Shown one piece after another: positions 16,276 to 63,090 of a DNA stretch of 64,000 nt; within the stretch, counting starts at the first letter, position 1, and the number at the start of each line of letters is the position of its first letter. Under the pieces are notes generated by a model that was given only the letters and a program-made list of their open reading frames with translations, was not told the origin of the DNA and did no database searches. Origin of the DNA: an uncultured delta proteobacterium (lineage in GTDB: Bacteria > Desulfobacterota > Binatia > JACPRU01); assembly GCA_963745025.1 (NCBI GenBank), contig CAVUWD010000010.1, positions 160,001 to 224,000 of the forward strand. The letters are read 5' to 3'. The position numbers and the translations under genes are program-made.

Positions 16276-16291
16276 AGCATTGGCTATGCCA
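16276..16291 (-). promoter_or_regulatory. sigma-54 -24/-12 motif upstream of the hybrid kinase
   Basis: TGGCATAGCCAATGCT (GG-N10-GC). Confidence 0.5.
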
Positions 16292-16479
16292 GTTCCTCGA
16301 AATCAGAAAATCCTTTAGAAACCCAGTAATTTTCTGCCTGCAAATCCGTCAAAAACAGTGCGAGTCGTCAGGATTTTGTGCGCCGGAAGTTGATAGTTCG
16401 GCGAGTTCGGCGCCACCGGCTAGACACCGTGTCGATTCGGGGCTAGCACGCTGGAACCGTGCGTGCGCCGATTCGTCCC

Positions 16480-17055
16480 ATGCCGGATCCCATCTCGCGC
16501 TTCGCGAAGTTGTTCGCCGAGGCCAAGCGGCGGCGCGAGCCGCATGCCGACGCCATGGTGGTCGCGACCAGCACACCGAACGGCCGTGCTTCGGCACGCT
16601 TCGTCCTGCTGAAGCAGTTCGATCACCGCGGTTTTCTCTTCTTCACGGACGCACGCAGTCGCAAGGGAGAGGATTTGCGAACGAACGCCTACGCCGCCGC
16701 CGTCTTCTACTGGCACCGAACGGAGAAGCAGGTGCGAATCGCGGGGCGCGTCGAGCGAGCTTCCGACGACGAGATCGATGCCTACTGGGAGGGTCGGCCG
16801 AGAGCGAGCCGGATTTCGGCTCTCGCCTCACGGCAGAGCGCCGAGATCGTCAGCCGGCGCGAGTTGTTGGCCACCGTGCAACGCTTGCGACGTACGCTTC
16901 GCGGGCGGCCGGTGCCGCGGCCAGGGGCATGGGTGGGTTTCCGCATCGTCGCCGACCGTATCGAGATCTGGAACCGGCGCCTGCATCGCTTGCATCACCG
17001 CGAGCTCTTCGTACGCCGAGGAGACCGTTGGGAGCAGCGCCTGCTCCAGCCATGA
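16480..17055 (+). CDS. pdxH: Pyridoxamine 5'-phosphate oxidase
   Basis: SARFVLLK, SRKG, KQVRIAG, ASRQS, RLHHR and LQP motifs. Confidence 0.92.
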   Translation: MPDPISRFAKLFAEAKRRREPHADAMVVATSTPNGRASARFVLLKQFDHRGFLFFTDARSRKGEDLRTNAYAAAVFYWHRTEKQVRIAGRVERASDDEIDAYWEGRPRASRISALASRQSAEIVSRRELLATVQRLRRTLRGRPVPRPGAWVGFRIVADRIEIWNRRLHRLHHRELFVRRGDRWEQRLLQP

Positions 17056-17256
17056 AGGGAGCGCGCCAACCCGAAGCGAAGTGATCCGGGGGGCGAAACG
17101 GGGCAGGCTCGCGCCTGGCGCGGGCCGCGTCACGAGCGCCAGGTCTACCGCGATGCCGTCTTTTGGGGGGAAGGCTTCGAGAAAGAAGCTCGTGTGGCGG
17201 ACAAGCCAAGCGCGGGACCGCCGCGTTCGGGTCACGGAAGAAATTTCCGATCGAGG

Positions 17257-19664
17257 CTAACTGGACAGGCGGTGGAGCGGCAGCTCGACGTGGAAGGCGG
17301 CGCCGCGGGGCTCGCGAGGGCTGAACAGGAGGTCGCCGCCGTGGGCGAGCACGATCTGCTTCGAGACCGCGAGGCCGAGGCCCGACCCCTGCGCCTTGGT
17401 GGTTTCGAACAGGCGAAACAGCTGTACGGAATCGGGGATGCCGCAACCGTCGTCTTCGACGGAGATCCGCAACTTGTCCGGCGGTACGATGCTGGCGACG
17501 ATCTTCACCTCGCCGGGACCCGAGTCGATGGCTTCGATCGCGTTCTTGAGCAGGTTGTCCAGAACGCGGCGAAGCTTCCCTTCGTCCGCCTCGATTTGCT
17601 TTGGCGATTCCGTAGCGTCGAGCTTGAGAGCGATCTGATGCGCGCTCGCCACCGGTTGCCAAACATTGAGCACCTCTCGAAGAAAGCGCGGGAGCTCGAT
17701 CTGCTGAAGATCGAGACGCTGCTCGCGGGCGAAGCTCAGGAACTCGCGAATCAGCCCCTCCAGCCGACGCACTTCGGAGACCAGCTGCTCGACCGGCTTG
17801 ATCACGTTGCCGAGGGGTTGGGTCGGATCGCGACGCGCCCGCTGCAAGACCAATTGCGCTTGCATCGATAGACCCGAGAGCGGGTTTCCGAGGTCGTGCG
17901 CGATCTTGGCGGTGATCGCTCCGATGTCGGCGAGGCGGGCGCGCTCCTGGGCGAGCTTTTGCAGCTCGAGAAGCTGCGCCTCGGCCTGCCTTCGCTCGGT
18001 GACATCGATGCCCATGCTGGCGAGGAAACGCTGCCCGGCGGCATCGGTGATGGGGAACTTGAATGACAGCCACTCGCGCATCCCCTTGTCGGGCGTCGGC
18101 GCCTGCTCGAGCACCTCGATCGGCTTGTTCGACGTGAGAACCTCGAGGTCGTGGGCGCGGAGCTGCTCGGCGACCTCTAGGGGCCAGAGCTCGAAGTCGT
18201 TCTTGCCATAGACCGCTTCGAGCGACGTGTGGAACACGCGCTCGTAGGGTTTGTTCACGTAGATCATCCGTCCGGATTCGTCCTTCATGAACGCGGTTGC
18301 CGGGCTGTTGTTCATGAACGCCTCGAAGCGGGCCTCGCTGTAACGAACCGCATCTTCGGAGCGCTTGCGCTCGACGAAGTCGCCGATCTGCCGCCCTAGC
18401 CCCTCGAGCACGCGCACCAGGTCCCCCCCGACCTCGCGGAGACTGCGGTCGAAAAAGCAGATCACCCCGGCGACATCCCCCCCGATGAAGATCGGGGACG
18501 CGAAGGCCGCGCACAGCTCGAGATTACGGAGCAGGGCCGCGCGCACGAGCTCGTTCGCCTTACGGAGATCGGAGATCAGGACCGCATCTCCGCTCGCCCA
18601 TACCATTCCGGGAAGCCCCTCGCCGCGCGCAAGAGACATCGTCTCGCTGACCGATACGTATTCCGCGGCGTCGAGCGCCGGGACGTACCAAAGCCCGTCG
18701 AGGCGGAGCGTCTGCGTCTCGCTATCGACGTACCAGAGCTCGCCGAGATCCCACCCCGCCGCCATGCAGATCGCTTCCAGGAGCCGCGGAGTCGCGCCGG
18801 TGAGCGAGTCGGCCTCGGCGAGCACGCGAGTCACGGCGTACTGCGCGGCGAGATGACGCTCGGCGCTGCGCCGCTCGGTGATGTCCTGGCCGATCGACAG
18901 GACGCCGGACACGCTTCCCTTGGCGTCGCGCAGGACACGGGTATGCCACTCGATCTCGCGGCTCGAGCCCCCCCGCGGGTCAGGAGCGAGCCGAAGTAGG
19001 CCTTGGCTTCCCCGTCGCAGAGCGTTTGGATGAAGACCTCCCGCGCCCGTTGTCGCTCCGGCGCCGGCAAGAACGTGGAAAACCAGTTCTTGCCCTTGGT
19101 CTCGGCCAGCGGCAAGCCCGAAATCTTCTCCATGTATGGGTTGTAGAGCACGATCCGCCCCTCGAGATCGCGCACGAGCACGATCGCCTCTGCCGCCTCA
19201 ACCAGCCGTTCGGCGAAATCGCGTTCACGGCGCAGCGCTTCCTCCATCCGCTTTCGCTCGGTGGCGTCGCGAATGATAGCCGTGAAGAGTACTTCGTCGC
19301 CGACCTGCGCTTCGGAAACGGACACCTCGATCGGGAAGACCTCGCCGTTCTTGCGCCGCGCCTCGACGTAGCGAATGCGCCCGATCACCTTGGTGACGTG
19401 GGTCTTGTGATAATTCTGGAGGTATTGATCGTGCTCCTCGTGATACGGAGGCGGCATCAGCATGCGAATGTTCTCGCCGAGCACTTCCGACGCTGAATAC
19501 CCGAAGATCTCTTCGGCGGCACGGTTGAAGAGTGTGACGATGCCGTCGCGGTCGATGCTGACGATCGCGTCGCGAGCGGTGTCGAGCACCGCCGCCCAGC
19601 GCGCTTGATCGAGTTGACGCAAGGAGAGCGCGTTCCTCGCGCGTTTCGATACGCTTTGGCTCAC
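17257..19664 (-). CDS. FixL-like heme-PAS / PAS / GAF / PAS sensor histidine kinase; frameshift at the C7 run 18968-18974
   Basis: FNRAAEEIFGY..LMPPPYHEEHDQYL..VIGRIR FixL-type PAS; adding one G joins LLTRGG to SSREIEWHTRVLRDAKGSVSGV; H-box AKIAHDLGNPL; start uncertain. Confidence 0.85.
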
Positions 19665-19892
19665 GGACTTCGGCAGGCCTTCGGGAAAGGAGCTAGCGGA
19701 GCATCGCAGAGGTCGCAAGGGGGCCGCGTTTTCCTGTGTAGCTCCCGCCTTTCCGATGCGCGCCCGGGGCTCCAGCGCGAGGCGAGACGGTGCACGCGGC
19801 GCTCGTGCCGACCGAACCCGCTCCATCGCGCCCTCGGGACGTTCGAGGATCGAGCGGTCGCGCAACGAATCGGCAAGCTCCGAGGCGAACGC

Positions 19893-20432
19893 TCAGCGCG
19901 TTTTCACCGACGGCACCGTCTCTGTGCGGAGGAGGCCATGACTTTCGACGTCATAGCCTGCTCGGGCGAGTGCCCGGCGGGCGGCGTCGATCGTCTGGGC
20001 GCCCTCTCGTAGCGGAGCAACGGGCAGATCGGGGGCCGAACGAAGCCGCGCGAGGAGCACCGCCCGGGCCTCTTCGCCCAGTTGCTCGGAGGCCTCGTAG
20101 AGGCCTCCGGGGCCCCCTTCGAGTCGATCGTGGTCGGCCAAGACGGCACGGAGCGCACGCACGATCCCGGCTGAAGGTGTAGAAGCGAGCAGCGCAGCCA
20201 GCGCGTCGTAGCGGCGCCGAAGCCTAGCCACGGTTTCCGTGGAAACTCGATGAGCGCGCTCGAGCGCAGGGAGCAGTATCTTCTCCTCCATGCCGATATG
20301 TTTGAGAAGTCCTGCACGAAAGGAATGGTAGGCCGAAATGTCCATTTCACCCGAATCGCAGGTGACGCGCGCGAGCAAACCGACGAGCCGGCCATGATCT
20401 GCGATGAGAAACTCGAACAGCGGTCCGAACAC
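19893..20432 (-). CDS. Hemerythrin-like domain protein (metal ligands partly degenerate)
   Basis: FLIADHGRL and KHIGMEEKILLP (HxxxEE) motifs; GTG start inferred. Confidence 0.7.
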   Translation of the reverse strand: MFGPLFEFLIADHGRLVGLLARVTCDSGEMDISAYHSFRAGLLKHIGMEEKILLPALERAHRVSTETVARLRRRYDALAALLASTPSAGIVRALRAVLADHDRLEGGPGGLYEASEQLGEEARAVLLARLRSAPDLPVAPLREGAQTIDAARRALARAGYDVESHGLLRTETVPSVKTR

Positions 20433-20460: not shown

Positions 20461-20476
20461 CGCAAAAATCCTGCCA
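20461..20476 (-). promoter_or_regulatory. sigma-54 motif upstream of the hemerythrin-like gene
   Basis: TGGCAGGATTTTTGCG. Confidence 0.65.
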
Positions 20477-20654
20477 GTCGGCATGCCGAAAACCCGTCGC
20501 TTCTCGCTCCGACAAAATTCTCCGAGCCAGCCATCCTCTCAGGTCTGAGAAACTTATGCCTCTTGCGTCTCAGTTTCGGCTTTGAGACCAAGAAAGCAGC
20601 GCATTCGCAATGCTCGGGCGATTTGCCAGGATGTCTGCGTAGGTCGTGGCGCCG

Positions 20655-22976: not shown

Positions 22977-23278
22977 CGCTCGGCCGAAGGCGCCACGAGC
23001 AGGGATCGACGGAGTTGGATGCGCTCGGAGGCGCCCCGGAGCCTCAGCTTCGTTCGTGCGTTTGGCAAGTGACATCGTTCGAGCCCGAGCCTATGGCAAG
23101 CCCTACAGAGCAAGCGACAGGCGAATGTCCTCGAACGCAAGAAACAGGAATCTCGAATCTGCTTTCATGGGAACCGCACCAGGCCCGCTGCGAAGGCGTT
23201 GGTAGCACCTTTCGCCCAAGGCGCCATTCTCGGCTGCGAGAATGAGCTCGGGGAACGGTTCCCGGGAATGGTAAGCCG

Positions 23279-23701: not shown

Positions 23702-24181
23702 CTAGGTTTCTCGAACGAGCTCAACAGGCGCTGATGGCCGTGTGAGTATTCGGATCTCTTCGACGAGCCTCGTGCAGGCATCGAGCAGATTGCTGCGTGT
23801 GAGAATGCCAACGACCTTCCCTTTTTCGACGATCGGCACAGCTCCGATGCGCTCGCGGCGGATCAGTTGAGCCGCATGGTCGATCGTGCCATCCGGCGGA
23901 AGCGTCAGAACGTTTCGCGTCATCACTTCCTCGACGGGGATCTCCCCCGCGCTGGCCGAGGGTCGGCGGCGGCTTCTCCTGCGGCGTCCCAAGATGTTTA
24001 GAACAGATGGAAACGCGTCACGCAGGTCGCGGTCGGTGATGATGCCGACGAGTCGGCCTCGAACGACGACGGGGAGCTGGTTAATCCGCTGCTTCTCCAT
24101 GAGCTCGCGAGCATGAAGGATCGTGTCACGCGGCTTGATGCTCACGATCGGGCTGGTCATCCATTCTCGGACTCGAATCAT
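23702..24181 (-). CDS. CBS domain protein
   Basis: Tandem CBS (RINQLPVV..GIITDRD; IGAVPIV..GILTR); GAGGAG RBS. Confidence 0.92.
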   Translation of the reverse strand: MIRVREWMTSPIVSIKPRDTILHARELMEKQRINQLPVVVRGRLVGIITDRDLRDAFPSVLNILGRRRRSRRRPSASAGEIPVEEVMTRNVLTLPPDGTIDHAAQLIRRERIGAVPIVEKGKVVGILTRSNLLDACTRLVEEIRILTRPSAPVELVRET

Positions 24182-24210: not shown

Positions 24211-24226
24211 AGCAATTCGCTTGCCA
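24211..24226 (-). promoter_or_regulatory. sigma-54 motif upstream of the CBS-cytochrome c operon
   Basis: TGGCAAGCGAATTGCT. Confidence 0.7.
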
Positions 24227-25543: not shown

Positions 25544-26273
25544 CTAGACGGTCTCGAGGCCGCCCGTGCTTCTGAGCGGGGCGGCGCAGATCGGCAGCGA
25601 AGCGGGCCTCTCGAGCCATCTCGCGGCACTTCGTCGTCCGACACCGGCCGGAAGTCGGTCGCGAAGCCGCCGATCGTCAAAAGAGGGCCGGCGTGGTGCA
25701 TTGTCGACCGAGCTCTCGACCAGCTCCTCGAGCAGTCTCACGGTCTCGAGCCGCAGAACCACGGGGACGGCGAGCACGAGGCGCTCGATCGGCTGGCGGC
25801 GCAAGGCGCCGATCGCGGCGACCACGGTGGCGGCCGTGGCTGACGCCGTCGTCGACGAGGATGGCCGTCGCGCCGGCTGGAAGCTCGAGCGGCTCGCCGT
25901 CGCGGAAGAGCTGCTGGCGGTCGCGCGATGCTCCACCCGCTGCTCCGCCGTCTCGCGCGACACGTGCGCGCGCCAGGCTTCGCTCCTCTCGGCGGTCGCC
26001 GGATGTCAGATAGGGCTCGCCGCCCTCAGCAACGGCGCCGATGGCGAAATCGGGATTCTGCGAGGCGCGCAGCTTGCGGGAGATGATGACGTCGAGCGGA
26101 GAGCTCGAGCTCACGGGCGATCTCCGCCGCCGGCACGACGCCGCCGCGTGGCAGGCCGAGCACGGACCGCGCGCTGCGCCTGCCGATAGCGCTGCGAGCC
26201 GCCTCGAGAGCAGCGCAGCCCCCCTCGCGACGGTCGCGGAACCGGCTGGGAAGGCATCGCGGTCGGGGTCCAT
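25544..26273 (-). pseudogene. Phosphoribosyltransferase (Rv0571c/Rv2030c N-terminal type) with multiple frameshifts
   Basis: RFRDRREGG, VLGLPRGGV, LDVIISRKL..NPDFAIGAVAE, ILVDDG, LVLAVPV and DFRPVSDDEV distributed over three frames. Confidence 0.8.
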
Positions 26274-26298: not shown

Positions 26299-26314
26299 TG
26301 CAAGCCACGAGCCA
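26299..26314 (-). promoter_or_regulatory. sigma-54 motif upstream of the PRT pseudogene
   Basis: TGGCTCGTGGCTTGCA. Confidence 0.55.
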
Positions 26315-26621
26315 TCGAGTGTCTGCTGTGGCAGGGCAGCGCGATCGGCTCGAGGCGGGTATCGCAGGTCTCGAAAATGCAAAGCTCGGCGACCACGCGT
26401 TCCCAAGGGTAGGAATGGCCGCGGCGGCGCCAGGCCTGGGTCCGCGAGGAACTCGACGCGGCGGTCGGCCAGAAACACGGAAATCCAGGTTCCCTCGTTC
26501 TCCTCCGTGTCCGGGACCCGCAGGCGCCAGGGGAAGATCGGCCCCGACGGTCTTCTCTCCGCACTCCTTCTTTGGCAAAAGAAGCTTGCCTTCGCATAGA
26601 GTAAAGAAGGGGCGGGTAGGA

Positions 26622-46188: not shown

Positions 46189-46252
46189 TGTTCCAACCAC
46201 GGAGAAGCGCGACGATGGAAGATGCCTTCCGGTTTGGATTGGAGGTCGATTA

Positions 46253-48203: not shown

Positions 48204-48914
48204 TCAGTGCGCAGCCGGAAGTCGCGGTCTACGCCCGACGGACTTTCGATGGTGCGGCGGAAGGCGGAACATCGCGCCGTCGCGGCCGAGCTCTCCGAAC
48301 GACGGCCGTTCGCCACGGTCCACCGCGCGGATCGTCGGCCGCCCGATGTGTGCGAACACGAGGCGGCGAATGCCGTGCTCGCGCGCCTCGCGGGCCACGT
48401 CGAGAGCCGCGGCGTGGCCCCCCGCGCCAGCCGCGAAGCGGATCGGCCGCCGCCAGCCTGCGGCGTCGGCGAACATCAGATCGGCCGCGGCGGCCCACGC
48501 CGGGAACTCGAGGAACTCCGGAGCCCACACGACCTGAGAGCGGCCCGCCTCGATCCGGTAGCCGCAGGTCCGATGTGACGTGTGTACGACCGGGTGGGGT
48601 GTGATGCGAAGACCGGGCGCAGACCATGCAACCAGGCGGGGTACGAGTCCGCGCGCCATCGCGAGCCGACGGATCGCGATGGCGAGCTCGGCCTTCTCGT
48701 CGGTCACGAGCCATGCGTCGAGGCGCCCGCGTGGCACCGCCGCGGAACCGCCGTCGATCATCACGCGGCTACGGCCATGCGTGACGAGCAAGCCCGCCGG
48801 CGCGTAGCGGGGCGAGTTCATCGCGCCCACGCCGAGGAGCCACAATCGAAGCGGCTCGCCACCGGCTCCGAGATGTCGTCTGCGCCCGCCCCGGAGCGGC
48901 CGACTTTGCTTCAC
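48204..48914 (-). CDS. MBL-fold metallohydrolase-like protein
   Basis: LGVGAMNSPRYAPAGLLV, VVHTSH..GYRI, WAPEF, GGH and FAHIG motifs. Confidence 0.65.
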   Translation of the reverse strand: MKQSRPLRGGRRRHLGAGGEPLRLWLLGVGAMNSPRYAPAGLLVTHGRSRVMIDGGSAAVPRGRLDAWLVTDEKAELAIAIRRLAMARGLVPRLVAWSAPGLRITPHPVVHTSHRTCGYRIEAGRSQVVWAPEFLEFPAWAAAADLMFADAAGWRRPIRFAAGAGGHAAALDVAREAREHGIRRLVFAHIGRPTIRAVDRGERPSFGELGRDGAMFRLPPHHRKSVGRRPRLPAAH

Positions 48915-49345
48915 TCCTCCTCTCGGCCCGGCGTGACCGGAGCCTCGGCGGCGCCTGCGATCCCCGAGGCCGCCGTGGTTTCCTTGCGCTGCTTGCAGGC
49001 GAGGCAAAGGCGCGCGGCGGGAATCGCCCGCAACCGCTCGGCATCGATCGGCGCGCGGCACGACTCGCATGCGCCGTAGAGCCCCGCGGCGATCTTACCG
49101 AGCGCGTGTTGGATCTCCTCGAGCTCCGTTCTCTCGCGATCGTCGAGCCGCGCGAGCAACCGCTTCGCGGCCTCTTCCTGCGCGCGCTCTAGCCATTCGC
49201 TCTCCCGGTCCTCTTCGATCGCGTGGAGGTCCGCTTCGACGCCCTCGAAGACGTGGAAGAGCGTGCGCCGGGCCGCGATGAGCCGTGCGCGCAGCTCGTC
49301 GATCGTCCCACGGTCGAGTGAACGGCGGCGGTTGATCCGGTTCAC
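48911..49345 (-). CDS. TraR/DksA C4 zinc-finger protein
   Basis: Coiled coil then YGACESC..RL.AIP.ARLCLAC; GTGA overlaps at both ends. Confidence 0.88.
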   Translation of the reverse strand: MNRINRRRSLDRGTIDELRARLIAARRTLFHVFEGVEADLHAIEEDRESEWLERAQEEAAKRLLARLDDRERTELEEIQHALGKIAAGLYGACESCRAPIDAERLRAIPAARLCLACKQRKETTAASGIAGAAEAPVTPGREEE

Positions 49346-49722
49346 GAGTGATACCTCACTCGCGGCAGGGTGATGTGCAGCACGCCGCCGCACAAGGTCA
49401 CCACCCGTTCCTCGGGCGCGACGGGGAAGGGCAGGCACACCCGGCGGCGAAACGTGCCGCTGCGGACGGCGTCCCGATGCAGGCGACCGAAGCCCGGCTC
49501 GCGGATCTTGCCCTCGACGTGCACTTCGTCTTCGGATGCGAGCACTCTGACGTCGCCGACCTCCACCCCGGCAAAGAAGATGCGGATCTCCAACTCCTCG
49601 TCCGACTCGAGGACTTCGAACGGCGGCTCGAGCGCCTCCGCTTCCCCAGTGACGAGCTCGAGCGCCAACTCCAATTGCGAAGCGGCTTCGTCGCGGTCGT
49701 CCTCAAAAGTGTTGTTCGCCAT
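49342..49722 (-). CDS. Hsp20 family protein (divergent)
   Basis: PPFEV, AGV, VEG, GTFRRRVCLP and GGVLHITLP motifs. Confidence 0.8.
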   Translation of the reverse strand: MANNTFEDDRDEAASQLELALELVTGEAEALEPPFEVLESDEELEIRIFFAGVEVGDVRVLASEDEVHVEGKIREPGFGRLHRDAVRSGTFRRRVCLPFPVAPEERVVTLCGGVLHITLPRVRYHS

Positions 49723-49750: not shown

Positions 49751-49766
49751 AGCAGAAGCCGTGCCA
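49751..49766 (-). promoter_or_regulatory. sigma-54 motif upstream of the hsp20-dksA-MBL operon
   Basis: TGGCACGGCTTCTGCT. Confidence 0.7.
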
Positions 49767-49867: not shown

Positions 49868-51232
49868 TCAGAGCGTAACGCTCAGCTCCCTCAGGATCCG
49901 CTGGTGCGACGTTTCGAGCGCCGCGCTGACGCGCACGGGATATGCCGGATCGACTGCGTCGAGGGCGCGCAAGCGGGCCGGCAGCTCGGCGATCCCGCGG
50001 CTCGCGCGGCTCCGAGCCGCCGACAGCGTCTCGCTCCCCGCCGCCGTGCGGCGGCCACCTCGCATGACCTGGACGAGGAGCGGGCGGCCGTCGAGCGCCT
50101 CGTCGTGGTGCGCGATCACGTCGCTCACCGCCTCGCCCTGCGTGAACGTGCGAAACACTTGCTTGCGCCCTGGCAGGATCGGCTTCTCGGGCGAGAGCTT
50201 GGTTCGTCCGATTCCGGCATACTCGACGAGCTTGTAAGCCATGTCGAGATACGGCGCATCATCCGAGACACCCATGTGGGTGCCCACCCCGAATCCAGCG
50301 ATGGGCGCGCCCTGCGCGACGAGCTTGGCGATCGTGTACTCGTCGAGGCTCGAGCTCGCGAAGAGGCTGACCCCCTGGAGGCCCGCTTCGTCGAGTATCC
50401 GGCGCGCCGCCTTCGACAGCGCATCGAGATCCCCGGAATCGAGGCGTAGCGCCGAGATGCGGAAGCGCTCGCCCATCTCGCGCGCGAGCGCTACGACCTT
50501 CCGTACCGCCGCGAGCGTGTCGTACGTGTCGACGAGCAGCACCGTCTCGGGATAGAGGCGCACGAACGCTCGGAAGGCTTCGATCTCGTTCGCATGGGCC
50601 TGGACGTAGCTGTGCGCCATCGTTCCCGCGACGGGAATTCCATAGGTCAGTCCCGCCAGCACATTCGACGTCGAGTGGACGCCCGCTACGTAGAAGGCCC
50701 GGGCCGCCTTCATTCCCGCGTCGGTTCCGTGCATTCGCCGAACTCCGAAATCGACGACCGTGCGACCGTTCGCGGCGGTCACCACCCGAGCCGCCTTGGA
50801 CGCTGCGACCGTCTGGAAGTGCAGCTGATTCATGAGAAACGTCTCGGCGAGCTGCGCCTCGGGAAGCGGAGCGACGACCTCGACGAGGGGCTCGCCGCCG
50901 AACACGACCGTTCCCTCGGGCACGGCGAACACGTCTCCGCGGAATCGGAGACGCGCCAGACGCTCGAGAAAGCGGTCCGAGAACAGTCCGATGCGCGACA
51001 GCGCGGCGATCGCCTCCACCGGGAACGACAACGTCTCGAGATAGCGCAGGACATCATCGAGGCCGCAAGCGACGAGATAGTTGCGATGCTCCGGCAGACG
51101 ACGGACGAAGAGATCGAAGACCGACTCTTCCTCCATCCCCTCCTCGAAGTAGGCCTGGAGCATCGTCAGCTCGTAGAGGTCCGTCAGCAAGGCGGCGTTC
51201 GAATCGTTCACCCATCCGCTTGGACCGTTCAC
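49868..51232 (-). CDS. pncB: Nicotinate phosphoribosyltransferase
   Basis: LLTDLYELTM, DFGVRR, GTMAHS, LVDTYD, RLDSGD and FGVGT motifs. Confidence 0.95.
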   Translation of the reverse strand: MNGPSGWVNDSNAALLTDLYELTMLQAYFEEGMEEESVFDLFVRRLPEHRNYLVACGLDDVLRYLETLSFPVEAIAALSRIGLFSDRFLERLARLRFRGDVFAVPEGTVVFGGEPLVEVVAPLPEAQLAETFLMNQLHFQTVAASKAARVVTAANGRTVVDFGVRRMHGTDAGMKAARAFYVAGVHSTSNVLAGLTYGIPVAGTMAHSYVQAHANEIEAFRAFVRLYPETVLLVDTYDTLAAVRKVVALAREMGERFRISALRLDSGDLDALSKAARRILDEAGLQGVSLFASSSLDEYTIAKLVAQGAPIAGFGVGTHMGVSDDAPYLDMAYKLVEYAGIGRTKLSPEKPILPGRKQVFRTFTQGEAVSDVIAHHDEALDGRPLLVQVMRGGRRTAAGSETLSAARSRASRGIAELPARLRALDAVDPAYPVRVSAALETSHQRILRELSVTL

Positions 51233-51287
51233 TGGACTTCTTCCTCGGACGACTGCGATTCGCCGGACCAGACTTCGCAGATCTCCT

Positions 51288-52226
51288 TCAAGTGTGTGCC
51301 AAGAGGTCTGCGACCGACCGGCCGCGGTGCAGGCGCTCGATTGCCGAGGCGAGCAGCCCGCCGATCGCTACGGCGTGGATCGGCACCGAGCTGCGCGGAG
51401 GGGCCGGCAGGCTGTCGCTGACGATCAGCTGCTCGATCCCGGCGGCCGCGAGTCGCTCGAGAGCCGAACCGCAGAAGAGGCCGTGAGTCGCCACGACCGT
51501 GCTGCCGGGCAAAGCGCCCACGGCGCCGAGCGCCCGGACCGCCGCATCGATCGTCGCTCCCGTGCTGATCATGTCGTCGACGACGAGCGCTCTTCGCCCC
51601 CGCACGTTCCCGCTCACCCCATGGACGCTCACCTCGGTGCCGCTCAGGCGAGTCTTGTGAACGACGGCGACCGGAGAGCCGAGAAGTTGGCCATAGCGGT
51701 CGGCGAGCTTGGCGGCGCCCAAATCGGGCGCGACGACGACGCTCTGCTCGCCCGCGAACGGCCGCGCGGCTTCCGCGAGGAGCGGTACCGCCGTCAGGTG
51801 CTCGACGGGCATGGCGAAGAAGCCTTCGAGCGCCGGGCTGTGCAAGTCGACGGCGACCATCCGTTCGAACCGGCCGACTTGGAACAGGTCGGCGATGAGA
51901 CGCGCCCCGATCGCTTCGCGCCCACGCGCGCGGCGATCGTGGCGGGCGTAACCGAGGTAGGGAACCACGGCGGTTAAACGCCGTGCCCCATCGCGTCGGC
52001 ACGCATCGGCGAGCAGCATCAGCTCGAGCAGATTTCCATCCACGGGAGGACCCGTGGGCTGGACGAGATAGACGTCGTCGCCGCATACGCTCTTCTGAAC
52101 CTCGACGTGCATCTCGCCGTCGGGAAAGCGCTCGAGCGTTCGCGGCACGAGCGTGACGGCGAGTCGCTTTGCGATCGCTTCGGCCAAGGGCACGTTCGCA
52201 GAGCCCGTGAGGATCGTCGGTGCCAT
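51288..52226 (-). CDS. prs: Ribose-phosphate pyrophosphokinase
   Basis: RFPDGE, PYLGYAR, DLH, VAPDLG, VDDMISTGAT and ATHG motifs. Confidence 0.93.
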   Translation of the reverse strand: MAPTILTGSANVPLAEAIAKRLAVTLVPRTLERFPDGEMHVEVQKSVCGDDVYLVQPTGPPVDGNLLELMLLADACRRDGARRLTAVVPYLGYARHDRRARGREAIGARLIADLFQVGRFERMVAVDLHSPALEGFFAMPVEHLTAVPLLAEAARPFAGEQSVVVAPDLGAAKLADRYGQLLGSPVAVVHKTRLSGTEVSVHGVSGNVRGRRALVVDDMISTGATIDAAVRALGAVGALPGSTVVATHGLFCGSALERLAAAGIEQLIVSDSLPAPPRSSVPIHAVAIGGLLASAIERLHRGRSVADLLAHT

Positions 52227-52245: not shown

Positions 52246-52261
52246 AGCCAGCAGCGTGCCA
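52246..52261 (-). promoter_or_regulatory. sigma-54 motif upstream of prs-pncB
   Basis: TGGCACGCTGCTGGCT. Confidence 0.55.
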
Positions 52262-52459: not shown

Positions 52460-52927
52460 GTGCGGATTCGGCGAATCCTCGCTCCGACGGACTTTTCGAC
52501 GATCTCGCTCGCGGCGGTCGATTATGCGTTAGGCCTAGCGCGCGACATTGGGGCGGAACTCGCGCTCCTCTACGTGGAAGACATGGCGTACGCGCTTCCT
52601 GCCGAACTCGTCTCTACGGAAACGGGGACCCGCGTGATGGAACAGGCGCATCGGGCGGCGCAGCATCAGCTGAAACTTCTCGCCAACCGGGTTCGCAAGC
52701 CCGGGCTCAAAGTTCATGCCCTGATTCTCGCCGGACCGGCGGCCACGCGCATCGTCGAGGCGGCATCGAAGCTCCGCGCCGACTGGATCGTGATGGGCAC
52801 GCACGGTCGCACGGGCATGGCGCGCGCATACCTCGGCAGCATTGCCGAGCGCGTCGTCCGGCAGGCCACGTGCCCCGTGCTGATGGTGCCAAGCCGCAAG
52901 GCGCCGGCTCGCCGCGCCCGCCGTTAA
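52460..52927 (+). CDS. Universal stress protein
   Basis: RILAPTDFS; IVMGTHGRTG..LGSIAERVVR..CPVL. Confidence 0.92.
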   Translation: MRIRRILAPTDFSTISLAAVDYALGLARDIGAELALLYVEDMAYALPAELVSTETGTRVMEQAHRAAQHQLKLLANRVRKPGLKVHALILAGPAATRIVEAASKLRADWIVMGTHGRTGMARAYLGSIAERVVRQATCPVLMVPSRKAPARRARR

Positions 52928-53808
52928 CCCGGCGGACTCCCGCCAGCGACGAGCTCGCCGCATTCACTTTCGCGGCCGCGCACGACGCGTCGGCCGCGAA
53001 ACGGGCCGCGGGTCTCCGTCACGACCGTCGCCTGCCGCTCGCCTCGACCATCATCCGCGTAGATGACCACCCAGTCGGCGGTCTTTCCGAGCTCGTGCGC
53101 CCGGAAGCTGTTCGAGAAGAGAGCCGTGTAGTGTCGGCCCCCGCGCTCGGTGTGGAGGATCGGGAGCCACGCTTCGCTCCGCGGATTGAAGCGGCGCGGG
53201 GTGATGCGATGGAGGGTTCCCGCCGCCGCCCGCTCGCGATACTCGCGATCCACGTCGAGAAGCTCGGCAACCGGGGGTTCGGCTCGGCTCGAGACGGGAA
53301 CGCGGGCTCTGCGGCCGAGCCTTCCCGCCAGGGCCTCGATGACGCCACGAAGTCGGCGTGTGCCGAAGCCTCTCACCGTCGCCAGGCGACCCTCGTGCGC
53401 CGCGACTTCGAGCTCCTCGAGCGTCTCGACCCCGAGCTGCTCGTGAATTCTCTTCGCCAGCTCGGCCCCCACGCCCGGAATCGTGGCGAGCAGTGCCTCC
53501 GCGCCGGCCTCGCCTCGGAGACGTTCGAGGAGGGCAAGCCGTCCGGTTTCGACGATCTCTGCGATCACGCGCGCGAGACTCTCGCCGACGCCGGGAAGCT
53601 TCGTGAGCTCGGGGATGCCGCCGGAGGCGAGAATCTCGGCCACGGGCCGCTCTAGCTGCCGCACCGTGGTGGCCGCGCGCCGGTACGCCAGGGTGCGAAA
53701 CGGGTTGGCTTGCTGCGACGCGAGCAGCTCACCGACCTCATCGAGCGCTTGGGCAACGTCCTCGTTCTGCGTGCCTGAAGCGGGCGGGCGCGCGAGAGCG
53801 TGTGGCAC
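52924..53808 (-). CDS. PolX N-terminal/helix-hairpin-helix domain protein lacking the polymerase core
   Basis: ANPFRTLAYRRAA, LPGVG, IPGVG and TLEELE..AHEG motifs; C-terminal PRRFNP..WLPILH..ALFSN..TADWVV. Confidence 0.8.
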   Translation of the reverse strand: MPHALARPPASGTQNEDVAQALDEVGELLASQQANPFRTLAYRRAATTVRQLERPVAEILASGGIPELTKLPGVGESLARVIAEIVETGRLALLERLRGEAGAEALLATIPGVGAELAKRIHEQLGVETLEELEVAAHEGRLATVRGFGTRRLRGVIEALAGRLGRRARVPVSSRAEPPVAELLDVDREYRERAAAGTLHRITPRRFNPRSEAWLPILHTERGGRHYTALFSNSFRAHELGKTADWVVIYADDGRGERQATVVTETRGPFRGRRVVRGRESECGELVAGGSPPG

Positions 53809-53810
53809 CG

Positions 53811-54071
53811 TTACCCCTTCCCCGCGCGTGCCGCGAGATACGCGACGCAGCGTTCGAGGCTCGAAAGCTTCGGGTAGTCCTCCTCCGGAATGTCGACGCC
53901 GAGCGCCTCGTGGACGCGGACGAAGAAGTTGAGGAGGTCGACCGAGTCGAGGTCGAGCTGGTCCCGCCAATCGACTTTCGGGTCGATCGACGCGGGGTCG
54001 ACTTCCGGGGCGATCGTGCGAAGCACCCGCAGGACCGTTTCACGGATCCCTTGCTCGTAGGCCGCGCTCAC
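53811..54071 (-). CDS. Acyl carrier protein
   Basis: LDLDSVD phosphopantetheine site; GVDIPEEDY; GTGA overlap with the E2 stop. Confidence 0.9.
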   Translation of the reverse strand: MSAAYEQGIRETVLRVLRTIAPEVDPASIDPKVDWRDQLDLDSVDLLNFFVRVHEALGVDIPEEDYPKLSSLERCVAYLAARAGKG

Positions 54072-55363
54072 AGCTTCTCCGGCTCCTGCAACAGCGCGTC
54101 GATCGCGGCGAGGAAGCGACCCCCGCGATGGCCGTCGCTCACGCGGTGGTCGGCAGAAAGCGTCGCCGAGATCACCGGACGGACGCCGAGCATGCCGCCC
54201 GAGGCCCACGGTCGCTCCACGACCTTGCCGAAGCCGACGAGCGCAACCTGCGGCGGATGGATGACACCGAACACGCTTTCCACGCCCTGGTCCCCGAGGT
54301 TGGTCACCGTGATCGTCGCGTCGGCGATCTCGGAGCTTCGCAACACGCCCGTCCGTGCTCGGTTGGTGACGTCCAGAATTTCCTTCATGAGCTCGCCGAG
54401 CGGCTTGCGATCTGCATCGTGCAGGGCAGGGGCCACGAGCCCCCCTTTCCGGAGCGAGATCGCCATGCCGACGTGGACGTGCTCGCTCGGGCGAAACTCG
54501 CCGTCGATCCAGAAGCCGTTCATCTCGGGTGCTGCGCGCGCGGCGAGCGCCACCGCTTTGACGAGCAGCAGCGAATGTAGCAGCCGCTCGGTGACCGGCC
54601 GTTTGCGGTTCTCCTCGGCGAGCCACGCGAGCGCCCGCCCGAGGTCGATGTGCGTCTCGAGATAATAGTGCGGGATCTCCCGCTTGGCGCGCGTCATGGC
54701 CGTGGCAATCGCCCGGCGCATCGCGGCCGTGCGCTCCTCGACGGTTTTCTGCGCCGCTCGCTCGGCCGGAGCGGGAGGCGCCGCGGGCGGGGGGACCGCC
54801 GGCAGCGCCGCTTCCCGAGCTGCCGCTGGCTTCGGAACGCCGCGAGCGGCCGCAGTATTCTCAACATCGGCCACGCGGATGACGTTCCCTTCGCCAGCAA
54901 TCACCGTGGCGAGATCGACGTTGAGCTCTGCGGCACGACGCCGCGCGAGCGGCGAGACCCGCGGCCGTGCGCCGCCCCCCGGCGGCTCGACGCCCGGAGG
55001 TGTTCGCGGTGCCCGTGCGGGCGCTGGCGGGGCCGGGCTCGGGGGGGGCGGCGCTTTCTCGCGAGGAATCGGCTCGCGCGGTGCCGGTGGCGCAGCCTTT
55101 GCGGGCGTCTCGGCAGCGGCCGCCTGGCCGTCTCGTCCGATCATCGCCATCACCGCGCCGACGGCGAGCTCCGTCCCCGGCTCGGCGAGGAGTGACTCGA
55201 TCACTCCATCCTCGAACACCTCGATCTCGATCAGCCCCTTGTCCGTCTCGACGAGGGCGATGATGTCGCCGCGGCGCACGCGGTCGCCGGGCTTCACCAT
55301 CCACTCGACGAGGGTGCCGTAGTCCATGTCGGCACCGAGCGAGGGCATGAGGAACTCAGCCAT
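54068..55363 (-). CDS. pdhC: 2-oxoacid dehydrogenase E2 (dihydrolipoamide acyltransferase)
   Basis: VETDK lipoyl site, SPLARR binding domain and DHRVSDG catalytic motif. Confidence 0.92.
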
Positions 55364-56378
55364 GCTCTCCCATTACGCGAATGGCCGCAGCGACGATGCG
55401 CGGCACCTGGGGCAGCGCCGCCTCCTCGAGATGCTTGGCGTAGGGCATCGGCACTTCGGCCGAGCAGACTCGCTCGACCGGCGCGTCGAGCTCGTAGAAC
55501 GCGCTCTCGACGATGCGTGCGGTGATTTCGGCGGAAAGGCTGCCGCTCTTCCATCCTTCGTCGACGATGACGGCGCGGTGCGTGCGCGACACCGATTGCA
55601 CGATCGGCTCGACGTCGAGCGGCCGTAGCGTTCGCAGGTCGATCACCTCGGCCTCGATCCCTTCGAGAGCGAGCTCCTCCGCCGCCTTGAGCGTCTTCGG
55701 CAGCGTTCCGCCGTAAGTGATGAGGCTTACGTCCGTTCCCGACCGGCGGATCGCCGCGTGGTCGATTTCGACGGCCCCGGCATCGGCGGCGAGCTCTCCC
55801 TCCATCGCGTACAGCGTGCCGTGCTCGAAAATCAGCACCGGATCGGGGTTCTCGAGCGCCGTCCAGAGCATGCCGCGCGCGTCCTCGAGCGTCGCCGGCG
55901 CGAGCACGCGGATCCCCGGGATGTGCGCGTACCAGCCCTCGAGGCTGTGCGAGTGCTGCGCCGCGAGCTGGCGGCCCGCGCCCGTCGTCATGCGGATCAC
56001 GAGCGGGATGTTGAACTGTCCGCCCGACATGTGGAGGATCGTCGCGGCGTTGTTCACGATCTGGTCGAGGGCGAGCAGGCTGAAGTTCACGGTCATGATC
56101 TCGACGATCGGACGCATGCCGCCGAGCGCCGCGCCGATCCCGGCCCCGACGAACGCCGACTCCGAGAGCGGCGTGTCGCGGATGCGCTCGGGGCCGAACT
56201 CGTCGAGCAGCCCCTTGCTGACGGCGAAGCAGCCGCCGTAGCGGCCCACGTCTTCACCCATGAGAAACACCCGTGGATCGCGCTCGAGGGCCTCGCGAAT
56301 GGCCGCGCGCATTGCCTCGCGATAGGTGACCCGCACTTTGGCGGCGGCTGCGGGCACCGCTCCACCGAGGGCGCTCAT
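55356..56378 (-). CDS. pdhB: Pyruvate dehydrogenase E1 beta
   Basis: MGEDV, DTPLSE, AAQHS and DLRTLRPLD motifs. Confidence 0.92.
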
Positions 56379-57366
56379 CGCGGCGACACCTCCGAGTAGA
56401 CGAAGCGTTCCAATTCTTCGACGGGCTCGAGGCTCCCTGCCTCGGCGAAGGCCACCGCGTCGGCTACCTCGGCGGCGATCTCCCCTTCCATGCGCTCGAG
56501 ATCCGCTTCCGCGATGAGGTCCGCTTTCTTCAGGGTTGCGGCCAGCGCTGGGATCGGATCCCGCTTCTTCCACTCCTCGACCTCGCGCTTGTCACGGTAG
56601 AGCTCGGGGTCGAACATCGAGTGCGCGCGGAAGCGATAGGTGCGGAGCTCGAGAAAGCACGGGCCGCCGCCCGCGCGCGCCCCTTCCACCGCGCGGCGCG
56701 CGGCACGCTCGACCGCGAGCACGTCCATGCCGTCGACGGGCCAGGCCGGCATTTCGAACGTCGCCGCTTTGAGCACCAGGTCGGTCTCGGACTCCGAGCG
56801 GCCGAGCGCCGTGCCCATGGCGTAGAGGTTGTTCTCGCAGAGGAACAAGACCGGCAGGTCCCAGAGCGCGGCGAGATTCATCGATTCGTGAAACTCGCCT
56901 TCCGCGACGGCGCCCTCGCCGAAGAAGCACGCGGTCACGCGCGAACGCCCCTGCATCTTGTCGGCGAGCGCGAGGCCGACGGCGAGCGGTAGCCCGCCGC
57001 CGACGATGGCGTTGCCGCCGTAGAAGCGCGTCGCCTTGTCGAAGAGGTGCATCGAGCCGCCGCGGCCGCGACTGCAACCTTCGAGCTTGCCGTACATCTC
57101 CGCCATGATCGAGCGCGCCGACAAGCCGCGCGCCAGCGCATGACCGTGCTCCCGATAGGTAGCGACGACGGCATCCTCGGGCGCGAGAGCCTGCATGACA
57201 CCGACCGCGACGGCCTCTTCCCCGATGTAGACGTGGAGGAAGCCGCGGATCTTCGTCGCGCTGTAGAGCTCGACGCACTTCTCCTCGAAGCGGCGGATGC
57301 GCAGCATCTCGCGAAGCAGCCGAAGCGCATGATCGCGCGGCGGCAGCGTGGGCGTGGTCTCGAGAG

Positions 57367-57370
<4 letters not shown>
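56375..57370 (-). CDS. pdhA: Pyruvate dehydrogenase E1 alpha
   Basis: [31 protein letters not shown] and TYRFRAHS motifs. Confidence 0.93.
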
Positions 57371-59140
<1,770 letters not shown>

Positions 59141-59153
59141 GTCGCGAAAAGTC

Positions 59154-59169
59154 CGCAAGAAGCGTGCCC
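59154..59169 (-). promoter_or_regulatory. sigma-54 motif upstream of acsA-pdhABC-ACP
   Basis: GGGCACGCTTCTTGCG. Confidence 0.65.
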
Positions 59170-61843: not shown

Positions 61844-61861
61844 GGCGTCTCTTCGCTCACC

Positions 61862-62746
61862 CTACGCGACGCGCCTGCTACCCGCCTCGAGCCAAAGAGC
61901 CTTCAGGTCTTTCGGCAGCTGGCTGAATATGTCCCAAGCCTCGCCTTCTTTGCCGGTGGCGCTGCCGAGCAATCGCTGCAGACCACGGAAGACGACGCGC
62001 ACGGCTTTTTCCGCCTGCGCATCGCTCTCCAAGCCGGCCCTCCGGCGCACCCGGCCGATGAATTCCTCCCTGTGAATTCGTCGAACGCGACGGTTGGGCC
62101 GCTCCTGTTCTAGCCAGAGTGGCTTCACCTGCGCGGGAAGCTGCGCCGCGACGTCGGCGGCCTCTTTGGGCGTGAGGCGATCCCGTAGCTCCTGGAGTAC
62201 CGCGAATGCGATGCCCTCCGCTTGCCGGTGCTCGCAACCCAGACGCTGCGCGATCTCGCGGATGAGTGAGGGCTTTCGCGCCCTCGCTCCGCCGCGTCGC
62301 GCCGCGCGGAACGCATCGCCGGCCTCGCTAGCCGCGGCGCACTTGAGCGCCCGGACGACGTCCTCGCGAGAAATGATGCCGACGACCTCCTCGCCCATCA
62401 TGACCGGGAAGCTCTTGAATCGCGTGTCGGCCATCATGCGAATCACCCGCGTGAGCGGCGTGTGGCTGCGGACCGTGATCGGCTCGCGGGTCATCACGGC
62501 CGAAACCTGTTGGCGTAGCATCTGCGGGTACGATTGCACGTCCGAGCGCCGCTCGAAGCCGAAAGCCTTGAGCAGGTCGAGCTTGGTGAGCACGCCGACG
62601 AGGCGACCTTCCTCCACCACGGGAATGCAGTTGAACTCGTTCTCGTCGAAAATCTCTTGGGCTTTCGCGAGCGTGGTACGACTGTCGATCGTGACGACCG
62701 GAAAGGTCATGAAGTCGTCCGCCCGGTACTCGAGGAACTCGAACAT
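61862..62746 (-). CDS. CBS domain protein fused to a DUF2267 domain
   Basis: MFEFLEYRADDFMT tandem CBS, then LRDRL..EA..VAAQLP and QLPKDLKALW; GGAGG RBS. Confidence 0.85.
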   Translation of the reverse strand: MFEFLEYRADDFMTFPVVTIDSRTTLAKAQEIFDENEFNCIPVVEEGRLVGVLTKLDLLKAFGFERRSDVQSYPQMLRQQVSAVMTREPITVRSHTPLTRVIRMMADTRFKSFPVMMGEEVVGIISREDVVRALKCAAASEAGDAFRAARRGGARARKPSLIREIAQRLGCEHRQAEGIAFAVLQELRDRLTPKEAADVAAQLPAQVKPLWLEQERPNRRVRRIHREEFIGRVRRRAGLESDAQAEKAVRVVFRGLQRLLGSATGKEGEAWDIFSQLPKDLKALWLEAGSRRVA

Positions 62747-62770
62747 GGCGCGGCCTCCCGCTAAGGAGCG

Positions 62771-62786
62771 AGCACAGACCATGCCG
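62771..62786 (-). promoter_or_regulatory. sigma-54 motif upstream of CBS-DUF2267
   Basis: CGGCATGGTCTGTGCT. Confidence 0.6.
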
Positions 62787-63090
62787 AGCGGCGTGCGATA
62801 GGAGCGCCGGGTTGATGGCCAGGTTTTCCCGCGGTCGGGAAAGGGGAAGTCATCGAATTCTCGAATGGAGGAACGTCTTCAGCTCGTTGCGGTCCTTTGG
62901 CCGACCTGCCTCGGGCGCTCACGATCTGCCGGCTGGCACGTTCCTTGGGACGCTTGCGCTCCATGGCGACGCGCCATAACGATTTCATCCGACGTTGCAT
63001 TAGCCTCGGGCAACTCGAAAGGAGAGTTCTGTAAAGCAGCCCCTGACATCGACCGATCTGCAACCGCCGCCCGCCTGTCGCCCCCCGGCG

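Follow-up and report, generated by a model that had tools for sequence, protein, structure and literature searches.

Gene content of the window

The 64-kb stretch of DNA analysed here (the window; G000:C10:160001-224000) belongs to an uncultured soil and sediment bacterium of the class Binatia and represents 1.13% of its genome, a 5.65-Mb assembly of 20 contigs that is 92.65% complete (G000). We consider it probable, at roughly 0.7, that this Candidatus Binatia genome has a sigma-54 regulon for survival under oxygen limitation, the larger part of it in the window, and that haem-based oxygen sensors most likely switch it on.

Pfam scans identified stress-related genes encoding three universal stress proteins (USP), two Hsp20 proteins, GroEL, four CBS proteins, a fusion of a ribosome hibernation (HPF, S30AE) and a cold-shock domain, PCMT, an erythromycin-esterase family protein, and a DksA-like protein. 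Metabolic genes encode NadE, PncB, phosphoribosyl pyrophosphate (PRPP) synthetase, a glycogen-phosphorylase-like protein, a cyclopropane-fatty-acyl synthase family protein, an acyl-ACP-synthetase/acyltransferase-like protein, and malic enzyme. An avidin family protein, hemerythrin, c-type cytochromes, and two histidine kinases at the left edge complete the inventory, which bears out the families named in a sequence-only reading of this DNA, including those for lipids, NAD salvage, glycogen use, and biotin binding.

The features of the cluster are given below. Mismatches refer to the sigma-54 consensus used for scoring, TGGCAC-N5-TTGC; UAS (upstream activator sequence) denotes a predicted enhancer site with dyad symmetry, scored with a position weight matrix (PWM). 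Protein-coding features marked Pfam were assigned from Pfam matches; ORF, open reading frame.

14111..16099 (-), hybrid histidine kinase with PAS, HisKA, HATPase, and two receiver stretches (Pfam), a possible phosphorelay partner
16277..16291 (-), sigma-54-type site, 2 mismatches, without a strong UAS, ~177 nt upstream of the hybrid kinase
17257..19865 (-), FixL-type haem-PAS sensor kinase in two overlapping ORFs, 18831-19865 (haem-PAS) and 17257-18912 (GAF-PAS-HisKA-HATPase)
19893..20432 (-), hemerythrin-domain protein (PF01814, E 1.7e-6) with an in-frame GTG start, heading the unit that leads into the FixL-type kinase; 27-nt gap to the next ORF
20462..20476 (-), sigma-54 promoter, 1 mismatch; UAS 77 nt upstream
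20534..20553, UAS dyad, PWM 18.2
23225..23244, UAS dyad, PWM 16.9, and another, weaker one at 23259
23702..24181 (-), CBS-pair protein, with cytochrome c next (23279-23686) (Pfam)
24212..24226 (-), sigma-54 promoter, 1 mismatch, 30 nt from the ATG; no UAS at PWM >= 13.5
25757..26258 (-), phosphoribosyltransferase gene in three frames (tblastn with the phosphoribosyltransferase of contig C13 gave pieces in frames -1, -2, and -3)
26300..26314 (-), sigma-54 promoter, 1 mismatch
26398..26417, UAS dyad, PWM 14.5
34508..34558, tandem UAS pair, starts 34508 and 34539, 31 bp apart
34608..34622 (+), sigma-54 promoter, 1 mismatch, for the avidin-family gene (34662-35081) and a DUF2279 gene (35236-36348)
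36240..39216 (-), Hsp20 (38746-39216), GroEL (37033-38646), cytochrome c (36577-37026), and Haem_bd (36240-36536) (Pfam)
39271..39285 (-), sigma-54 promoter, TGGTCC variant, 2 mismatches
39356..39375, UAS dyad, PWM 15.6
39444..42505 (-), CBS (42014-42505), DUF7884, FAD oxidoreductase, and cyclopropane-fatty-acyl synthase family (39444-40394) (Pfam)
42566..42580 (-), sigma-54 promoter, 1 mismatch
42632..42682, tandem UAS pair (42632, 42663) common to two divergent promoters
42711..42725 (+), sigma-54 promoter, 1 mismatch, for CBS (42754-43290) and the acyl-ACP-synthetase/acyltransferase-like gene (43321-46113)
46175..46189 (+), weaker sigma-54-type site, 3 mismatches, before malic enzyme (46214-47590) and an Adenosine_kin-family gene
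48204..49722 (-), Hsp20 (49342-49722), DksA-type zinc finger protein, and metallo-beta-lactamase fold protein (Pfam)
49752..49766 (-), sigma-54 promoter, 1 mismatch; UAS 49793-49812
49868..52226 (-), PRPP synthetase (51288-52226) and nicotinate phosphoribosyltransferase (49868-51211) (Pfam)
52247..52261 (-), sigma-54 promoter, 1 mismatch; tandem UAS at 52333 and 52364
52924..59140 (-), AMP-ligase, 2-oxoacid dehydrogenase E1 alpha, E1 beta, and E2, carrier protein, and HHH protein (Pfam)
59155..59169 (-), sigma-54 promoter, 1 mismatch; UAS 59199-59218, PWM 20.0
61862..62746 (-), CBS-DUF2267 protein (Pfam)
62772..62786 (-), weaker sigma-54-type site, 3 mismatches; UAS 62824-62843, PWM 15.0

Sigma-54-type promoters are enriched in the window

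The sequence-only reading had listed 13 GG-N10-GC motifs upstream of transcription units. All 13 are present, 1-2 nt from the positions it gave, and each is intergenic and oriented to the downstream gene. Nine of the 13 differ from the consensus at one position (20462-, 24212-, 26300-, 34608+, 42566-, 42711+, 49752-, 52247-, and 59155-), two at two positions (16277- and 39271-), and two at three (46175+ and 62772-). The proximity to start codons that had been described was likewise found, the distance from the GC to the likely start being 14-60 nt for 12 of 13 sites and ~177 nt for site 16277.

A comparison of motif density with background argues for enrichment: at <=1 mismatch the window holds 11 matches versus 2.45 +/- 1.68 expected from 100 dinucleotide shuffles (maximum 7; 0/100 reach 11). 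Two of these 11 matches are not among the 13 sites, namely 55088+, which lies inside a gene, and 62934+, which lacks the GC. Genome-wide, 214 sites with <=1 mismatch have both GG and GC intact, 10 of which fall in the window versus 2.4 expected. The match at 62934-62948 (+) combines a TGGCAC-type -24 element with GG in place of GC at -12, ~140 nt before an ABC transporter ATPase gene, and was not counted as a promoter.

A profile search of the genome recovered rpoN (PF04552 at C6:408760-409236, E 1.6e-61). The genome also yielded 24 PF00158 matches at E <= 1e-20, corresponding to 22 full-length genes for enhancer-binding proteins (EBPs) and one in two pieces; the profile search found no EBP gene in the 64-kb window. 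No Rfam family reached its gathering score in the window.

A shared dyad lies upstream of the promoters

Upstream of the sigma-54 promoters we identified a dyad with the consensus TTCYCA-N4-TGRGAA, the predicted EBP site. An expectation-maximisation motif search of the 13 window upstream regions, two of which share an intergenic stretch, returned this dyad in imperfect form with a log-likelihood of 83.2 versus 50.0-61.3 in five shuffles (width 18). A separate search of nine upstream regions from a second gene cluster, on contig C13, returned the identical dyad (61.7 versus 39.0-44.7 in four shuffles; width 16). Exact inverted-repeat enumeration over the upstream regions found no repeat common to five or more of them, and simple k-mer counts over them were suggestive only.

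At <=2 mismatches the dyad consensus has 18 matches in the window versus 3.06 +/- 1.66 (0/100 shuffles reach 18). With a symmetrised matrix at PWM >= 15, the genome contains 66 matches, with the 14 training sites counted; the window accounts for 11 of them (0.75 expected) and C13:222-266 kb for 12 (0.51 expected). The copies are often paired, with starts 30-32 bp apart at 12 loci. Among 2214 sigma-54-like sites in the genome, 34 have a dyad 40-170 nt upstream (nine in the window, three in the C10 flanks, nine in the C13 cluster, and 13 elsewhere), versus seven for the mirrored position and 0-16 for 20 column-permuted matrices (0-1 in the window). Sigma-54 wiring of the window is thus supported, because the promoters are enriched, they have an enhancer site in common, and rpoN and EBP genes are present.

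The regulon probably extends beyond the window

The sequence-only reading had delimited a regulon of ~45 kb. The gene cluster that it described is present, and the predicted regulon is larger than the window, continuing on the C10 flanks and in the C13 cluster, which contains the likely activator. The 20 kb after the window encode a Lon-like protease, two USPs, RtcA, a CBS protein, a BON protein, a second GroEL and Hsp20, glucan phosphorylase, and a HemN_C protein. The cluster at C13:224-265 kb is of similar character and comprises genes for four USPs, four CBS proteins, NorCBQD-like proteins, COX1/COX2, c-type cytochromes, archease-RtcB, and a phosphoribosyltransferase, together with DksA-like, BON, PolX, TrkA, and Pat-like acetyltransferase genes and an NtrC-type EBP gene. 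It has at least 11 intergenic sigma-54-type sites.

Members with both dyad and sigma-54 site outside the clusters include nosZ with cytochrome c, a PfkB kinase gene, genes for an Fe-S/NrfD-type complex, and a cytochrome c gene just before the window. The nosZ locus (G000:C16:430444-432972; L128) encodes a protein with nos_propeller and cupredoxin domains and a cytochrome c, and a strong dyad lies 69 nt upstream of site C16:432972, the only perfect TGGCAC-N5-TTGC found that is intergenic with GG and GC intact.

A candidate activator is conserved among relatives

The candidate activator is an NtrC-type EBP of 478 aa encoded at G000:C13:259589-261022, with Response_reg (30-138), Sigma54_activat (169-336), and HTH_8 (436-471) domains. 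Its gene is the second of a CBS-EBP operon, directly after the CBS gene, and its product is the probable activator of both clusters. Orthologues were identified in 25 of 40 relatives of the class at 59-95% identity (paralogues <=50%), and in a quick tree, the backbone of which is unresolved, they form a clade with an SH-aLRT of 100 apart from the other 21 EBPs of G000. The best public matches are from two Candidatus Binatia metagenome-assembled genomes (MAGs) at 68-69% identity, which assigns the organism to this group. Two Binatia loci (L048 and L049) have only two UAS matches and one strong sigma-54 site each.

Adjacency of CBS and EBP genes is widespread, and the order Pat-CBS-EBP-COX2-COX1 is kept in three relatives (G001, G002, and G006), in which dyad copies abut the EBP start and a dyad with a sigma-54 site precedes COX2. 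In G000 a tandem dyad pair (G000:C13:261030-261079; L141 2942-2991) abuts the EBP start codon, leaving no room for a promoter, an arrangement kept in the same three genomes that may give negative autoregulation of the EBP.

Synteny in the same-genus genome G001, a comparison called for by the sequence-only reading, revealed one ~70-kb region (C27:175-245 kb) composed of a C13-type cluster with the EBP and then most of the window genes, inverted; the region ends with a FixL-type kinase, PNPOx, and a hybrid kinase. The 140-kb stretch of G001 with this region has 18 dyad matches at score >= 14 versus 2.6 expected at the G000 genome-wide rate. The promoter at 42711 and its upstream dyad are kept before the orthologous CBS-PCMT-erythromycin-esterase operon in G001 and G006 while the flanks diverge, and other families likewise have sigma-54-type sites near this operon. 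Synteny restricted to the erythromycin-esterase gene in G001 and G006 had suggested that the large cluster is not conserved; this was ruled out by the position of the cluster on C27 in G001, the apparent lack of conservation arising because the comparison was confined to the surroundings of that gene.

Predicted haem sensor kinases accompany the candidate activator in relatives

The sequence-only reading had proposed an oxygen-sensing, FixL-like kinase, and the product of 18834-19865 (-) indeed matched FixL haem domains (1d06, E 3.5e-27; 1dp6, E 2.4e-26). The histidine of its EHD motif aligns with the histidine of the FixL chain, the predicted haem ligand. In G001 the haem-PAS and GAF-PAS-HisKA-HATPase parts form a single 810-aa frame (L160; G001:C27:237842-241234), which makes a frameshift or an assembly error the probable cause of the split in the window. 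Shorter forms of 519-529 aa without GAF occur in G002 and G006. Since the kinase follows the hemerythrin gene, with a dyad 77 nt upstream of promoter 20462-, the sensor appears to be under its own regulon.

A protoglobin-HisKA-HATPase kinase is encoded <=1.5 kb from the EBP orthologue in 11 of the 25 relatives that have one (G003, G004, G007, G015, G017, G020, G023, G026, G034, G036, and G039), and likewise beside the EBP in the Binatia MAG locus L049. A predicted FixL-type PAS lies <=1.6 kb from the EBP in G008, G011, and G040 and 5-7.4 kb away in G019 and G029, and none of these five genomes has a protoglobin match. In total, 14 of 25 relatives thus have a haem kinase immediately next to the EBP orthologue (11 globin-coupled and three FixL-type). 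Protoglobin matches are also missing from G000, at its 92.65% completeness, and from the Corallococcus genome behind L074, and none of 78 distant EBP loci (L050-L127), where the EBPs are paralogues, has a globin kinase nearby. From this linkage we infer that one regulator is served by interchangeable haem sensors through phosphotransfer. In G007, a globin-coupled kinase and the EBP orthologue occupy one open frame of ~892-894 aa (L146; G007:C161:23035-27414), which may be either a fusion or the mere absence of an in-frame stop between the two genes.

Other features of the locus

The gene behind promoter 26300 (-) is not a USP gene; it proved by tblastn to be a phosphoribosyltransferase gene reading in three frames, and may represent either a pseudogene or an assembly error. 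Further split genes are KdpA, in three ORF pieces (G000:C11:597977-599793; L137), and the second GroEL, in two (G000:C10:236922-238531; L047). Together with the split FixL-type kinase and phosphoribosyltransferase, they suggest indel errors in the assembly.

GroEL (37033-38646, -) lies between Hsp20 and cytochrome c only in G000; Hsp20 adjoins the cytochrome in G001, and an RNA-library contig of one relative joins 37039 to 38417, bypassing GroEL. The avidin-family (biotin-binding) gene at 34662-35081 (+) is located behind one of the best combinations of promoter and tandem dyad. The S30AE ribosome hibernation domain and the cold-shock domain are fused in one 210-aa ORF at 33375-34007 (-). Directly left of the cluster, a PQQ biosynthesis set at 10644-13807 (-) consists of genes for Lactamase_B_2 (PqqB-like), PqqC-family, PqqD, and radical SAM/SPASM (PqqE-like) proteins.

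Public DNA runs with matches to this DNA came from metagenomes of sediment, bog, wetland, and soil (shares 0.22-0.37); the shares were small in four RNA-library runs, from rice paddy, sediment, and soil. The RNA-run contigs, ~95-98% alike over 33000-52900, cover parts of HPF/YbaK, avidin, cytochrome c/Hsp20, DUF7884/CBS, and Hsp20b/DksA. These assembled sequences stem from relatives, may derive partly from DNA, and are uninformative about starts, strands, and levels; no claim on expression is drawn from them.

Comparison with known regulatory systems

DosS and DosT of Mycobacterium tuberculosis are GAF-haem kinases that feed a single response regulator, DosR, a NarL/LuxR-type protein acting with sigma-70-type promoters, and the DosR regulon is rich in USP, Hsp20, CBS, phosphoribosyltransferase, NAD-salvage, and ribosome-hibernation families. 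In rhizobia, FixL signals to FixJ, a LuxR-type regulator, and NifA-RpoN sigma-54 promoters are used under low oxygen. The match to DosR-regulon families drawn by the sequence-only reading stands at the level of Pfam (USP, Hsp20, CBS, PRT, NAPRTase, Erythro_esteras, and S30AE) and not beyond it: the resemblance is taken as family-level only because the CBS, USP, and Hsp20 proteins drew no M. tuberculosis-named PDB chain at E <= 1e-5. The wiring also differs, with an AAA+ EBP, sigma-54, and a PAS-haem or globin sensor predicted in Binatia instead of a LuxR-type regulator, sigma-70-type promoters, and GAF-haem sensors. The Binatia genes resemble the rhizobial arrangement in encoding a FixL-type haem-PAS sensor, predicted to sense oxygen, and sigma-54 promoters that would act under low oxygen; unlike FixL-FixJ, no LuxR-type regulator was seen in a general Pfam scan of the window, and the presumed partner is the NtrC-type EBP.

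The sequence-only reading knew of no description of such a system, a view that has to be revised. NmpRSTU of Myxococcus xanthus has the same logic, and the lxa locus of Burkholderia cenocepacia is a clustered low-oxygen locus (PMC11841059 and PMC3721108, respectively). NmpRSTU includes a protoglobin kinase (NmpU), a hybrid kinase (NmpS), and an NtrC-like regulator (NmpR), which acts at seven sigma-54 promoters controlling 23 genes (PMC11841059). The NmpR regulon includes a CBS gene heading the nmpR operon, a USP gene, cbb3 oxidase genes, hemN-hemerythrin, and the nmpU operon, and its hypoxic induction has been shown; DosR-regulon USPs are mentioned in the same source (PMC11841059).

Like NmpRSTU, the predicted Binatia system combines a candidate haem sensor kinase and a hybrid kinase with an NtrC-like regulator and with sigma-54 promoters that have two sites upstream, and a CBS gene comes first in the regulator operon. 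Motif and gene order further place USP, hemerythrin, HemN, and terminal oxidase genes in the Binatia regulon, as in that of NmpR, the HemN_C gene lying in the C10 flank. The sensor operon of NmpRSTU is under its own regulator, and the Binatia hemerythrin-kinase operon is behind a sigma-54/UAS promoter; a globin kinase lies beside the EBP in the 11 Binatia relatives named above. The NmpR site differs, however, being GCGCA-N5-TGCGC with sites 14-15 bp apart (PMC11841059), whereas the Binatia dyad is TTCYCA-N4-TGRGAA with starts 31 bp apart. The seven promoters and 23 genes of NmpR contrast with about 34 promoter sites and two large clusters in the Binatia genome, where the sensor is a FixL-type haem-PAS kinase with no protoglobin found, and no link to pilR or motility was seen in the Binatia system. 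Orthology of the Binatia EBP to NmpR is not supported by best matches or by the quick tree: EBPs beside globin kinases in two Myxococcota MAGs (L157 and L158), used as stand-ins for NmpR, are 45% identical to the Binatia EBP, match other EBPs of G000 better, and lie outside the Binatia clade, the backbone of that tree being unresolved.

The lxa locus is a 50-gene low-oxygen cluster of USP, alpha-crystallin/Hsp20, metabolic, electron-transfer, and regulatory genes, with one regulatory motif at 17 intergenic points and further members elsewhere in the genome, and it is needed for anoxic persistence (PMC3721108). The Binatia system likewise combines a large gene cluster, one motif repeated at many intergenic points, and extra members elsewhere. 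The lxa motif is of the Anr/FNR type (TGA-N6-TCA) with ordinary promoters (PMC3721108), whereas sigma-54 and an EBP are predicted in Binatia. No FNR-type box was found in the cluster: the sole window match to TTGA-N6-TCAA (0.28 expected) falls at 9062, beyond the cluster. A 2025 survey reports that chaperone and USP genes of other phyla are preceded by predicted sigma-54 sites (PMC12316311). Among the papers listed in searches of the literature, none joined Binatia/Binatota with sigma-54 or universal stress, and searches on sigma-54/RpoN with USP, Hsp20, dormancy, or low oxygen returned no description of the Binatia system. As judged from its genes and motifs, the regulatory logic is that known from NmpRSTU, and what is new is a several-fold larger, clustered regulon with a different binding site.

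Proposed mechanism and alternative explanations

In the mechanism that we propose, haem sensor kinases would report falling oxygen; this role would be taken in G000 by the FixL-type kinase (17257-19865), perhaps with the hybrid kinase (14111-16099), and in many relatives by a globin-coupled kinase. The kinase would phosphorylate one NtrC-type response regulator, the REC-AAA+-HTH_8 EBP of C13:259589-261022, which would bind TTCYCA-N4-TGRGAA, usually 45-120 nt upstream of the promoter element and often in two copies 31 bp apart. By analogy with established NtrC-type EBPs, the phosphorylated protein would oligomerise on the tandem dyads and remodel the closed sigma-54 complex, thus opening TGGCAC-N5-TTGC-type promoters; about 34 sites genome-wide have both elements. 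Predicted targets would serve the protection of proteins and ribosomes (Hsp20, GroEL, BON, and DksA-like proteins), nucleotide sensing (CBS and USP proteins), the supply of NAD and PRPP (Prs, PncB, and phosphoribosyltransferase), RNA repair (RtcB/archease), lipid remodelling, and alternative respiration (NorCBQD-like proteins, NosZ, haem-copper oxidase, and c-type cytochromes). The sensor kinase genes themselves may be among the targets, which would provide feedback. That low oxygen is the signal is what we infer from linkage, and a dormant state is speculative.

Several observations weigh against this interpretation. The EBP is outside the window and has no kinase beside it in G000, so that the pairing of kinase and EBP rests on relatives only. 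Consensus matching detected no sigma-54 site for three USP genes, a weight-matrix scan for weaker promoters not having been run, or, with the same limit, for the operon of YbaK, HPF-cold-shock, PCMT, erythromycin-esterase, permease, and NadE genes in G000. Two of the 13 sites (16277 and 24212) lack a UAS at PWM >= 13.5, the sole UAS-like copy at 46175 sits downstream of the site, and the UAS pair 23225/23259 (23225-23274, 32 bp apart, just after the cytochrome c gene) has no recognisable downstream sigma-54 site on the strands read. Some RNA-library contigs of close relatives cross predicted start sites and a UAS region (one covers 42210-42684), and those over Hsp20 reach 20-28 nt beyond the expected start on its upstream side. 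The UAS matrix is partly circular, having been built partly from promoters that it then scores; independent discovery and conservation lessened this circularity and did not remove it. The excess of promoter matches at <=2 mismatches is also weak (57 versus 45.0 +/- 6.6; 3/100 shuffles reach 57), which, with the two sites having three mismatches, would suit an origin of the GG-N10-GC matches by chance or composition in G+C-rich intergenic DNA, the genes then being read from sigma-70-type promoters. Such an origin is nevertheless highly improbable: no shuffle reached the observed count at <=1 mismatch, the sites are oriented, placed before start codons, and coupled to the upstream dyad far above controls, and they are kept before orthologues while the flanks diverge.

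Haem-PAS and globin sensors can bind NO and CO besides oxygen, and the same sigma-54/EBP circuit might respond to NO or to nitrosative or redox stress, with the haem kinases as NO/CO sensors and the regulon directed at denitrification, NO detoxification, and damage control. NorCBQD-like genes with cytochromes in the C13 cluster, nosZ with its perfect sigma-54 site and UAS at C16:432972, and the hemerythrin gene heading the kinase operon are consistent with this possibility, which we regard as unlikely: most members are general survival genes without a link to NO (Hsp20, GroEL, USP, CBS, NAD salvage, RNA repair, and lipid), a haem-copper oxygen reductase is also in the regulon, and oxygen sensing is the role described for FixL and the globin kinase NmpU/AfGcHK, the nearest sensors to have been characterised (PMC11841059). 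Somewhat less likely still is a general energy-starvation or stationary-phase regulon in which the EBP integrates another cue, such as adenylate charge via the co-encoded CBS protein, and the haem kinases serve other regulators. A CBS gene precedes the EBP gene, which has no kinase beside it in G000, and CBS and USP genes are numerous in the clusters, which also encode DksA-like proteins and an HPF; yet 14 of 25 relatives have a haem-sensor kinase immediately next to the EBP orthologue, with globin and FixL types complementary in distribution. This adjacency and complementarity are hard to explain under starvation control, and the haem kinases are therefore likely partners of the EBP. We thus favour the low-oxygen regulon under haem-based sensors.

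Biological significance

If the low-oxygen regulon is as proposed, its promoter, dyad, activator, and candidate sensors would constitute a testable regulatory code for anoxia survival in an abundant uncultured lineage. The logic of NmpR would be extended to a far larger, clustered regulon in another lineage, and beside DosR and lxa the Binatia system would be a further wiring that unites USP, Hsp20, and CBS families. The apparent swap of globin-coupled and FixL-type kinases on one regulator would provide a clear natural example of modular sensor exchange. For practical use, the dyad and sigma-54 site could serve to annotate metagenomes for this regulon and to interpret metatranscriptomes sampled along oxic-anoxic gradients.

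More tentatively, and with somewhat less than even confidence, we suggest that Binatia may possess a self-contained low-oxygen supercluster of ~70-100 kb, with its kinases, one dedicated EBP, an enhancer code, and more than 30 promoters, that evolved independently of NmpR and DosR. Globin and FixL-type inputs would have been swapped repeatedly while the regulator and its DNA code stayed fixed, and the supercluster may permit these uncultured bacteria to enter a non-growing, DosR-like state where soils and sediments periodically become anoxic.

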